The translations under genes and the position numbers were made by a program. A stretch of DNA of 64,000 bases from a bacterium. Its GTDB lineage: Bacteria; Electryoneota; Electryoneia; Electryoneales; Electryoneaceae. Each line of letters opens with the position of its first letter. The stretch's first letter is position 1. The stretch is taken from assembly GCA_963669175.1 (NCBI GenBank), contig OY769902.1, forward strand, positions 5,120,001 through 5,184,000, read 5' to 3'. Of the stretch, positions 35,057 to 37,098 are shown piece by piece. The notes under the pieces are model-generated. The model saw only the letters and a list, made by a program, of their open reading frames with translations. It was not told the origin of the DNA and ran no database searches.

Positions 35057-35194
35057 AAAAAGTGGACAGTGAAAAAGGTGAAAAAGGAAATGAGGAATCA
35101 GCGAATGGCTCTTCGTGTATCTCAACAACAATAATTTAGCATAGTTATTCTGCTATGTAAACAGTCAAGGGTGTAAAGAGCCTTTGTATCGTCC

Positions 35195-35370
35195 CATGTG
35201 CCGTTCTGCTATTCGTGCTCGTGGCACAAGTTTTTTGTTCGCACGGAACAGCGGCGCCCTAAACTCGAATCGTTGTCAAGCAACAGAATAACTACCAGGG
35301 TCGCGTGTTCCCAATGGCATCGGACGATTCAATCACAATCTATGCTTTACCTACCTGCCAGCAGTGCTGG
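35195..35370 (-). ncRNA. Predicted bridge RNA / seekRNA of the IS110 element (ends approximate)
   Basis: Two internal-loop modules whose guides match the target (10/10 and 5 nt) and the donor (4 and 7 nt). Confidence 0.82.
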
Positions 35371-35372
35371 GG

Positions 35373-36434
35373 TTATACGCAGGCAGGATTGTAGTCTTGT
35401 TCTTTGACCAGCATGGCCCACAGTATCACGGCTAGTTTTCGTGCCATGGCGACGATCGCCACTTTCCGTGTTTTCCCGGCATGGATCGCATCGTATTTCT
35501 TCTTTGCATACGGATCTTTTTGCACCCAACGCCACGCAGCTTCGACCAATAGTTTTCGTAGATGGGACGGTCCCCAGTGGGTAATGTGTCCCATATGGCG
35601 TGTGTTGGCGCTTGACCATTCACACGGCGTCAAGCCAAGATGTGCGCCGACTTGCTTACCGGATGCGAAGCGTTCGGGACGATACATCTCGGTCACGAAG
35701 GCGTTCACGGTCAACTCGCCCACTCCCTTCACCTGGCGCAGGCGCTGGGTACGGTCCCGATACGTTGCGGACGCATTCATCGCCTTGATCGCTTTGGTGA
35801 TCACCTTGAGTTGCTGTTCAATGGCCTCCAGCTCATCGAGAGCAACATCAATGGCTATCCGTGTCGCGGCCAGACAATCACACGTTCGCAACCAGCGCCG
35901 GTATTCCTTTGTCCAATAGCGTTGCGGCGGAAACGGTGACTGTAAACCGTGAAACAATAGCAGACTCTTGATTCGGTTTTTGACCCGAACGCGATCATTC
36001 ATCACCTGGTCACGGGTGCGAGACAACTGACGATCCGCCTCTTCCTGTTCTGTAGGGACATGTACCCAGGTACGGGGCGGTGTCCAGAACATGTGGGCCA
36101 AGGTCAGGGCATCCAGATGATCGGTCTTCTGCTGCTTCGCTTGCGCCCCTTTGGGAACTTGGCTGGGCGGCGCGATCTGGCAGTCAACACCTTGGCCGAT
36201 CAGGTAACGACAGAGGCCAAAGCCGGTGAGGCCCGCTTCATAACACGCCCACATGCGGCAGTTGGGAAAACGGGCAAAGAAGCGTTCCCAGGCGGCTGAG
36301 TCATGCTTGATCCGATTCTCAAAGAGCACTTCACCAGTCTGGGTGTCGAGCACAACGGCGAAAGAAGTCTGCGAATCAACATCCAGACCTATAGACAATG
36401 AACGGTCCGCTGCAATAACTTGGTTCTTCGACAT
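35373..36434 (-). CDS. IS110 family transposase/recombinase
   Basis: DEDD: 'GLDVD', 'YEAG', 'KTDHLDA'; C-terminal 'RFASGKQVGAHLGLTPCEWSS', 'AIVAMARKL'; AAGGAG RBS. Confidence 0.96.
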   Translation of the reverse strand: MSKNQVIAADRSLSIGLDVDSQTSFAVVLDTQTGEVLFENRIKHDSAAWERFFARFPNCRMWACYEAGLTGFGLCRYLIGQGVDCQIAPPSQVPKGAQAKQQKTDHLDALTLAHMFWTPPRTWVHVPTEQEEADRQLSRTRDQVMNDRVRVKNRIKSLLLFHGLQSPFPPQRYWTKEYRRWLRTCDCLAATRIAIDVALDELEAIEQQLKVITKAIKAMNASATYRDRTQRLRQVKGVGELTVNAFVTEMYRPERFASGKQVGAHLGLTPCEWSSANTRHMGHITHWGPSHLRKLLVEAAWRWVQKDPYAKKKYDAIHAGKTRKVAIVAMARKLAVILWAMLVKEQDYNPACV

Positions 36435-36628
36435 GGCGCTTCTCCTTGTGTTGGAAAAATGGAATACTGCTAAGATAGCAGTTCCAACACGACTTGATGC
36501 GCCTGTCGTTTAACATAGGAACTCGATTTTATTCCGTCATCATGGAGATTGCCGGGAAAAGGGGACAGGATCCTTTTCCTCACCCTCAAACAGAATACTC
36601 TTGCTGAATCTGTGGAACAGGAAACTAA

Positions 36629-37098
36629 CCCGAATATTTCATGAACGGAACATGGATATTCATCTTAACACAGTTCATATCAACACAATACAACTGATTC
36701 ATACAGCATTTTTCAGGGGACAGTTTGCTCCGGTATCCCTTTGCGTGTCTATTCCCTGTTTCGCTGGCAAAATAGGCTGAGAATCGGCAACCGCCCCGGC
36801 AGGGGCAACCTGTATTAGCCCCGGGCAGCCGCCGTCAGTTTGGCGGCTACCCGGGGAGATAATGCGCACCATATATTTACTCCGGAAGGAGTAACCTGAT
36901 AATTATCAAAAGTATACAGTGGAAATATTCAGGCAACCCGCTGCCGGGGTTGGCAAGTAGCGTACATCCTATTCCCACCGTGAGCGCCAAACAGACGGCG
37001 CTGGACGGTGGGCTAATACAGAGAACCACTGCCGTGGTTCTTGTACTGGCCATTCCATCAAATACCAAATTTGAAATTGCATTGGTGAAATATTCGGG
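36629..37098. mobile_element. MITE-A copy 2 (470 bp, inverted relative to copy 1, TSD CTAA)
   Basis: CCCGAATATTTCA / TGAAATATTCGGG; CTAA at 36625-36628 and 37099-37102. Confidence 0.9.

Follow-up and report, generated by a model that had tools for sequence, protein, structure and literature searches.

An IS1111-like IS110-family element in an Electryoneaceae genome, with a predicted downstream guide RNA that matches its target and its own ends

As agents that join recombination to guide RNA, elements of the IS110/IS1111 type were described in 2024 in two forms, the bridge RNA of IS621 (on which see also Hiraizumi et al. 2024, PMC11208158) and the seekRNA of IS1111-type elements. The passages of these reports on which we draw (Durrant et al. 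2024, PMC11208160; Siddiquee et al. 2024, PMC11187229) predict, for 93.0% of IS1111-group elements, a bridge RNA with pairing patterns of 8-14 nucleotides (nt) that would lie in their right end, put the nucleotides that bind the donor within a multi-loop in many IS1111 orthologues (both PMC11208160), and show downstream seekRNAs experimentally for four IS1111 members, ISEc11, ISPa11, ISKpn4 and ISPst6 (PMC11187229). The transposase co-purifies with the IS1111-type seekRNAs, which movement requires, and in these elements a promoter at the joined ends co-transcribes the recombinase and a long RNA (PMC11187229). A further IS110-family element, ISPpu9 of Pseudomonas putida, lies in repeated extragenic sequences and has a small-RNA gene downstream of its transposase gene, according to parts of PMC12288879. 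Here we examine an IS110-family element of 1370 base pairs (bp), at positions 35152-36521 of a 64,000-nt stretch of DNA (the window) from a bacterium of the family Electryoneaceae (GenBank assembly GCA_963669175.1, contig OY769902.1, positions 5,120,001 to 5,184,000). Its recombinase gene is followed by non-coding DNA in which an initial annotation, made from the letters of the sequence, had read a bridge RNA with two guide-bearing loops. By bringing together sequence matches, covariation, site preference, catalytic residues and promoter geometry, we consider it probable (roughly 88%) that the element encodes a downstream bridge RNA or seekRNA that guides its DEDD/Ser recombinase to the target and to the element's own ends.

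The element lies on the minus strand and has a CT core dinucleotide at either boundary; it carries 221 nt of non-coding DNA downstream of the recombinase gene (35152-35372) as against 87 nt upstream of it (36435-36521). The core of the predicted RNA, about 150 nt on the recombinase strand (35182-35334), is closed by a long-range stem returned by an inverted-repeat search (35184-35198 with 35318-35332; 15 nt, 87% complementary), which encloses two modules. The target module reads CCCU-GG-UAGUUAUUCU-GUUG(CUUGA)CAAC-GA-UUCGAG-UUU-AGGG on the recombinase strand: CCCU (35297-35300) pairs with AGGG (35257-35260) in a closing stem that is extended by GCG/CGC across a bulged A, the inner hairpin (35272-35284) is read from the sequence and folds, and the predicted left and right target guides are UAGUUAUUCU (35285-35294) and (U)UCGAG (35264-35269). 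The donor module reads CCGU-GCGAACAAAAAACUU-GUGC(CACGA)GCAC-GA-AUAGCAG-A-ACGG, with a closing stem of CCGU (35246-35243) and ACGG (35204-35201), an inner hairpin at 35215-35227 that is likewise read from the sequence and folds, a candidate left donor guide AACU (35229-35232) and a predicted right donor guide AUAGCAG (35206-35212).

The matches between these segments and the surrounding DNA that the initial annotation had reported were recovered. The reverse complement of 35285-35294 is TAGTTATTCT, identical at 10/10 positions to 35142-35151 on the plus strand, that is, to the left target flank (LT; TAGTTATT, 35142-35149, the same as the first 8 nt of the left guide) followed by the left copy of the core (35150-35151). 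On the other side, 35264-35268 (CTCGA) equals 36522-36526, the right copy of the core (36522-36523, plus strand) followed by CGA (36524-36526, plus strand), the right target flank (RT). As for the donor, 35206-35212 (CTGCTAT) equals 35150-35156, the core and the element end GCTAT, and AACU (35232-35229) equals the last two bases of the element and the core (AA-CT, 36520-36523). The closing stems and inner hairpins also stand where they had been placed, on both strands read, with GA after each inner hairpin; the CNNGA inner loops that had been taken as part of the design are present in the window but are not conserved in the relatives, whose loops, by reading, vary in sequence and length. The left target guide is thereby predicted to pair with the strand complementary to LT and the core, the right target guide with the core and RT on the plus strand (5 nt here, 6 nt at CGAA-type sites), and the right donor guide with the core and element end CT-GCTAT, such that two predicted guide segments lie in one internal loop, on opposite target strands, and overlap at the core. 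The 10-mer of the left guide occurs twice in the window, in the flank and in the guide (0.05 expected; 0/100 shuffles gave two or more), and the match extends to a perfect 11-nt inverted repeat (35142-35152 with 35284-35294). The 7-mer CTGCTAT has 11 matches in the window against 5.3 expected, its weight coming from its conservation in relatives, and the 5-mer and 4-mer guide matches are too short to count alone.

In its geometry the predicted RNA resembles that of IS621, as set out in parts of PMC11208160: both have two internal loops of similar design, a CT core in every pairing and an enzyme with DEDD and Ser residues, and in both a long 5' guide ends in the core beside the inner hairpin while a short 3' guide ends in the core beside the closing stem. 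The arrangement departs from that of IS621 in that the RNA lies downstream of the gene rather than upstream, both are encoded opposite the strand that bears the CT core, the element has long subterminal repeats, and the left donor guide is about 4 nt rather than 8-9. With the IS1111 seekRNA elements, as far as the passages cited describe them, the element shares the position of the non-coding region after the recombinase gene, the presence of subterminal inverted repeats, a top-strand match 5' of the bottom-strand match in recombinase orientation with the two overlapping at the insertion point, a promoter predicted at the joined ends, site- and orientation-specific insertion, and the GL-P----S motif of the enzyme. 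Because the arrangement is that of IS1111 (RNA after the gene, on the strand opposite CT), the order of the strand matches appears reversed in recombinase orientation. The element fits the right-end RNA predicted by Durrant et al. (2024) for the IS1111 group. In contrast to the multi-loop of many IS1111 orthologues, its donor module is a simple internal loop like its target module; a separate donor-binding loop is readable here, whereas the passages of PMC11187229 on which we draw do not describe donor-matching seekRNA sequences. Compared with those experimentally studied elements, the present one is known from sequence alone.

Further support for the target guides comes from relatives of the element. 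Protein searches of genome collections and of the phylum returned a handful of relatives, all at most 48% identical. Common to their tails are GACCCYG ahead of the first guide, ...AG-UAU following the second, GAAUAGCAG, and an end of the form CCCTTGAC-N7-8-ATAGC|AG. The last three of these motifs were used as a pattern on metagenome contigs, which yielded 47 loci with recombinases 29-51% identical; together with six genome loci and the window they make 54 pattern records. Records with less than 150-170 nt upstream or less than 9-12 nt downstream of the pattern were left out, giving 44 records and then 39 clusters, of which 37 have a usable right-end flank and 21 a left end found by regular expression. 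The pattern is silent on the target guides and the flanks. Covariation was scored as the best ungapped match of an element's own flank plus core within the 161 nt before the donor guide, with one representative per cluster of tail sequences.

Scored in this way, the left target guide matches its own flank at 8.03 of 11 positions on average, and the flanks of other elements at 6.89 (standard deviation 0.75; 0/20000 permutations, 37 representatives), and the right target guide matches its own other flank at 6.62 of 8 positions, against 5.50 for those of others (0/20000 permutations, 21 representatives). The left-guide match reaches at least 8/11 in 26 of the 37 representatives, and the second-guide match is 7/7 in half of the elements with a known left end (12/24). 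The strong matches sit at equivalent places, directly after the conserved lead-in. The initial annotation had pointed to covariation of 35285-35294 and 35264-35268 with their flanks in homologues as a check on its reading, and both guides do track the flanks; at the level of sequence, both target guides covary with their own flanks across a diverse family. Three loci without the end pattern (L032, L033 and L039, 32-35% identical) are excluded from all counts, and L031/L038, with a broken recombinase gene and no recognisable right end, was used for reading only; a scan of viral contigs with the end pattern gave 0 matches. Two metagenome loci, L068 and L093, keep the donor module and the right end and have neither the GACCCYG lead-in nor a flank match; they look like copies in which the target loop has been lost or replaced.

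The right donor guide and the element end with which it would pair are invariant in the protein-found relatives L035, L036, L037 and L031, and therefore covariation is impossible on the right side of the donor; the GA preceding this guide is kept in these four relatives as well (by reading). On the left side, again by reading, the match in relatives covers about 3-5 nt plus the first core base (7 nt in L031), and the three bases that precede a conserved C vary together with the left end (UUAC with TAAC, UUGC with CAAC, and GAAACU with TTTC in L031). The short left donor guide proposed earlier is thus in keeping with the family, in which this guide is mostly about 3-5 nt and the 7-nt right donor guide is invariant, and it is reasonable, from these comparisons, to suppose that recognition of the donor may rely on the right guide together with the subterminal repeats. 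Among the copies of the element in the genome, the RNA region is identical except at position 35229 (A to G in 3 copies, so that AACU reads AACC in 3/12), which is the core position of the short left donor guide.

The recombinase or transposase gene (35373-36434, minus strand; 353 amino acids) encodes the DEDD_Tnp_IS110 and Transposase_20 domains (Pfam PF01548, E 5e-18, 65.7 bits; PF02371, E 8e-20, 71.5 bits; both over the curated cut-offs). Across 23 aligned homologues, the catalytic residues D18, E66, D105 and D108 do not vary and S275 is conserved to at least 90%. Among PDB entries, the transposases of IS621 and ISCro4 are matched by the C-terminal domain (E about 3e-9), the KTD..DA and Ser motifs being aligned; against IS621, this is the only domain that reaches significance in the sequence search. 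The DEDD residues and the serine of GL-P----S have been described for IS1111-type enzymes (passages of PMC11187229); here the motif is present (G267, L268, P270, S275), and the residue after the Ser is A, not G. The named IS1111 members IS4321 and IS5075 are 25-26% identical over 71% of the recombinase length, and a plasmid search gave ISEc45 as the best named relative (30.8% identity over 94% of the length) and no close named relative. Altogether the identity of the recombinase is at most about 51% to relatives read as DNA and at most 31% to named insertion sequences, with one metagenome protein at 85%; the closer relatives (P0002-P0012), seen as proteins, are 53-85% identical. Judged by these motifs and domains, the protein is an IS110-family DEDD/Ser recombinase with its catalytic residues in place.

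The genome that carries the element offers a second line of evidence, from the choice of sites. When the 5.45-Mb genome was searched with the complete element, solely 12 full copies and copies of the flanking repeat were returned. All 12 copies have identical boundaries; the right copy of the core is CT in 12/12, and the left copy, CT in the window, is CC in 4/12. The left flank in the 12 copies reads ATAG-[T/C/A]-[T/A]-[G/A]-TT. Empty sites consist of LT, a single core dinucleotide and RT, the core being present at both junctions when a site is occupied, and the single dinucleotide of the empty sites, together with the identical boundaries, shows that the boundaries assumed in the initial annotation were right. 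Seven of the 12 copies stand at the left edge of one repeat family (family 1; 71 copies, at least about 190 nt long, the window copy running from 36524 to about 36720), which RT opens. The seven occupied copies of this repeat match the guides at 10-13 of 13 positions (mean 11.4), while the 64 empty ones average 9.7 (Mann-Whitney p = 0.0002), and there is no perfect empty site among the 110 sites within two mismatches in the whole genome. Occupied sites match the guides better than empty ones, as a guide RNA predicts. Family 1 begins T-W-G-CTGTTCT-CGATTTTATTCCG and contains two GGAAAAGG...CCTTTTCC hairpins, with another copy in the window from about 61718; it may be a miniature inverted-repeat transposable element, a repeat like the repetitive extragenic palindromic sequences, or a small RNA gene.

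The predicted RNA would be expressed from a promoter formed when the ends of the element join. Joined across one core, the ends would give TTGACT-17-TATGTT, a predicted sigma-70 promoter whose -35 hexamer (TTGACT, 35163-35168, minus strand) would come to lie 17 nt from a -10 hexamer (TATGTT, 36517-36512, minus strand) in the end upstream of the recombinase gene. Of 22 family members, 20 have a spacer of 17-18 nt, and by reading the remaining two give 17 with a hexamer three bases on; the -10 half of this promoter is outside the pattern by which the metagenome loci were found. An outward promoter-like site (35161-35133, minus strand; TTTACA-17-TAAATT) has its -35 in the element end and its -10 in the flank, one such site being found and 1.1 expected by chance. 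In the leader of the recombinase gene, a hairpin at 36466-36482 (minus strand; 7 bp, ACUGCUA-UCU-UAGCAGU), with a weak T-run after it, was marked as terminator-like; it includes CUGCUAU, the complement of the right donor guide, has by reading no counterpart in the same region of relatives, and may be due to chance.

As for structure, the minimum-free-energy fold of the 223-nt tail holds both inner hairpins and the closing stem of the target loop (z = -1.05, unremarkable), and the 153-nt core (35182-35334) has z = -2.37, with 3/200 shuffles as good. When 20 representatives were folded with the guides held unpaired, most gave the order closing stem, guide, inner hairpin, guide, closing stem. By reading, the closing stems differ between relatives yet stay paired, with GCG/CGC in the window and unrelated stems of 6-9 bp in L035, L036, L037 and L031.

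We propose that the ends of the element would be joined across one CT to form a circle, in which transcription from the junction promoter would run through the recombinase gene and on into the RNA. The bridge RNA, of about 150 nt on the recombinase strand and with two internal-loop modules, would be bound by the recombinase. In the target module, the 5' guide would pair with the strand complementary to LT and the core, and the 3' side with the top (CT-bearing) strand over the core and the right part; in the donor module, the 3' side AUAGCAG would pair with the core and the element end, and the 5' side, of about 4 nt (AACU), would serve the other end. The RNA-bound recombinase would recombine the circle with sites of the form ATAGYTRTT-CY-CGA, mainly at the left edges of two repeat families. 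We infer that the RNA is made, processed and bound, that the circle is formed and that the guides are necessary; the RNA is assigned to the recombinase strand because of the geometry, the direction of the promoter and homology.

Several results weigh against such a guide RNA. At the sites in the genome, the left guide matches at 10/10 positions in only 2 of the 12 copies, with scores from 7 to 10, and 8 of the 12 have G where the guide would need A; natural IS110 sites usually show zero to two guide mismatches (Durrant et al. 2024, PMC11208160, in the parts cited). Among relatives, 11 of the 37 representatives have a best own-flank match of 7/11 or less, within background, for which mismatched sites, degenerate copies and contig ends are possible reasons. 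Since the right donor guide, the -35 box and the element end are all prescribed by the search pattern, their conservation in the metagenome loci is set by construction; an unbiased search for the left donor guide did not single out AACU, as matches of 4-6 of 8 positions are scattered and the segment is too short. A promoter scan found no sigma-70-like promoter before the RNA in the integrated element. The one metatranscriptome run (X1) gave two 151-nt contigs, 95-99% alike and at depth 2, in a related recombinase gene and left the tail (35152-35372) uncovered, a cover that speaks neither for nor against expression. Folding is equally good in the sense and the antisense direction (sense more stable in 21/37 representatives, Wilcoxon p = 0.74), such that folding energy cannot tell the functional strand; MAFFT and RNAalifold on nine close relatives gave no useful consensus (the window was misaligned, with 8 poor pairs), and the tail has no match to any Rfam family. 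The other runs (X2-X4) are of unrecorded kind and resemble the genome's own sample; no joints of a circle junction occur in the run contigs, which could not show rare forms.

The mismatches at the genomic sites would also be expected if the element were a fossil, its RNA module a relic and its copies spread by duplication or by recombination between repeats. The guide is mismatched at one to three positions in most copies, and two copies share a long right flank, so that shuffling of flanks by recombination is possible. This explanation, which we consider improbable, fits poorly with the copies themselves: the 12 differ from the window copy at 0-10 of 1370 positions, the RNA region is invariant at all but one position, the recombinase frame is open in all 12, each copy has a left flank of its own (12 different ones) with an exact 2-bp core boundary, and the occupied copies of the repeat are those with the better guide matches. 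By the comparison of copies, the insertion sequence appears active or recently active.

The results on expression and folding bear on another, slightly less probable explanation, by which the guide-like segments act as single-stranded DNA that pairs with the target, in the manner of IS200/IS605 elements, or by which an antisense transcript is the active one. The transcript data do not cover the tail, the folding energies do not favour the recombinase-sense strand, and each guide is complementary to one strand, which makes the pairing strand-neutral. Against this, the enzyme is a DEDD/Ser recombinase of the IS110 family and not an HUH enzyme, RNA co-purifies and is required in four IS1111-type relatives and in IS621 (PMC11187229 and PMC11208160, in the passages cited), the recombinase-sense reading alone reproduces the geometry of IS621, and the junction promoter points in the recombinase-sense direction. 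That the matches arose by chance, or that the element captured a piece of its target repeat, is hardly credible: the matches of 4, 5 and 7 nt are individually unremarkable, but the 10/11-nt match is unique in the 64 kb and the equivalent positions in relatives differ, each matching its own different flank.

The genomic copies also bear on how strands are exchanged by the guided recombinase. The left junction is CC and the right one CT in all four CGAA-type insertions (+4231561, +5242043, -3527013 and -1688542), and the reverse was never seen; three of the insertions lie in a second repeat family and one in another context, and two of the four sites share their right flank. By hand count, 8 of 10 empty boundary copies of this second family carry CC where the core lies. 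The family consists of tandem 18-nt units, CGAAAGTATTTGCTGATT-like, ending in a AGCCTGCTTCAGCAGG hairpin (for example at genome positions of about 2143818, 2369213 and 3017000), and is usually preceded by TATA..GTT-CC. From CC on the left and CT on the right it follows that the core at each junction corresponds to the CT-bearing strand of target and donor. Such junctions would be expected if the CT-bearing strand alone were exchanged and inherited, the left junction then keeping the target core and the right junction the donor core. Exchange of both strands with a stagger of 2 nt would give a heteroduplex core and either arrangement, in which case four of four would arise by chance once in 16. 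Four events are a hint, and a bias of mismatch repair is possible too. Single-strand (top-strand) insertion has been proposed for IS110 elements in vitro (preprints of Sun et al. 2025 and Xie et al. 2026, seen in part). We suggest tentatively, and with the odds against it, that the footprints in this genome record single-strand insertion, together with a hard-wired, one-sided recognition of the donor (an invariant 7-nt right guide and a left guide of about 4 nt, across recombinases 29-51% identical). If this were true, the footprints that an IS1111-type element has left in nature would lend independent support to the single-strand model and extend it to the other branch of the family.

With regard to classification, the element has these features of the IS110 family: both domains, the catalytic residues, and site-specific insertion at a 2-nt core without terminal inverted repeats; a promoter at the joined ends of a circle is predicted from its two halves. 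Of the features of the IS1111 group, the element has the non-coding region downstream of the gene and subterminal inverted repeats that are slightly short, and it does not have the extensions of 7 (or 6) and 3 bp. The arms of the repeat, on the plus strand, are CTATGTAAAC on the RNA side (35153-35162, 1 nt inside the element end, read from the sequence) and GTTTAACATAG upstream of the recombinase gene (36508-36518, 3 nt inside the element end and containing the -10 hexamer); they agree at 10 of 11 positions with one indel. Beyond them are extensions of 3 nt (TTC) at one end and 1 nt (C) at the other; with the 2-nt core added, they count as 5+1 or 3+3 depending on the end to which the core is given. 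The element hence differs from IS1111 members, as described in the passages cited, in these extensions (7 and 3, or 6 and 3, bp there), in a repeat of 10-11 bp with one indel rather than the usual 11-13 bp, in a Ser motif that reads SA rather than SG or TG, and in a recombinase of low identity (the 25-26% over 71% given above). It is IS1111-like in layout and a possible member of the group, its recombinase being only 25-31% identical to named elements. Like ISPpu9, as partly described, it is an IS110-family element that lies in repeats, with a predicted RNA region after the transposase gene; in P. putida the RNA gene also occurs as solo copies, whereas here the search returned only full copies and the flanking repeat.

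Downstream of the element, the Rfam matches to a GC-rich palindrome (36812-36865, arms of about 20 bp) are weak and below threshold on either strand (F6 sRNA and microRNA models); the palindrome is probably a terminator or a repeat hairpin.

The degree of novelty implied in the initial annotation does not hold, as RNA-guided recombinases of this kind had already been described in 2024; its proposal of a programmable RNA-guided recombinase is supported by the covariation of the guides, the better matches of occupied sites and a two-loop design common to the relatives. The picture of how such elements work is unchanged, and the finding is confirmatory rather than surprising. With it, the RNA-guided recombinases of the IS110/IS1111 type gain a member that is divergent, apparently active and readable in full, and in which both loops are simple internal loops. 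The four insertions with a mismatched core bear on the question of one-strand or two-strand exchange in vivo, and the genome, with 71 copies of one target repeat of which 7 are occupied, constitutes a natural experiment in specificity. The collected family, with one donor arm and dozens of target guides, represents a natural series of reprogrammed RNAs, which could help to define the positions of the RNA that can be freely changed.

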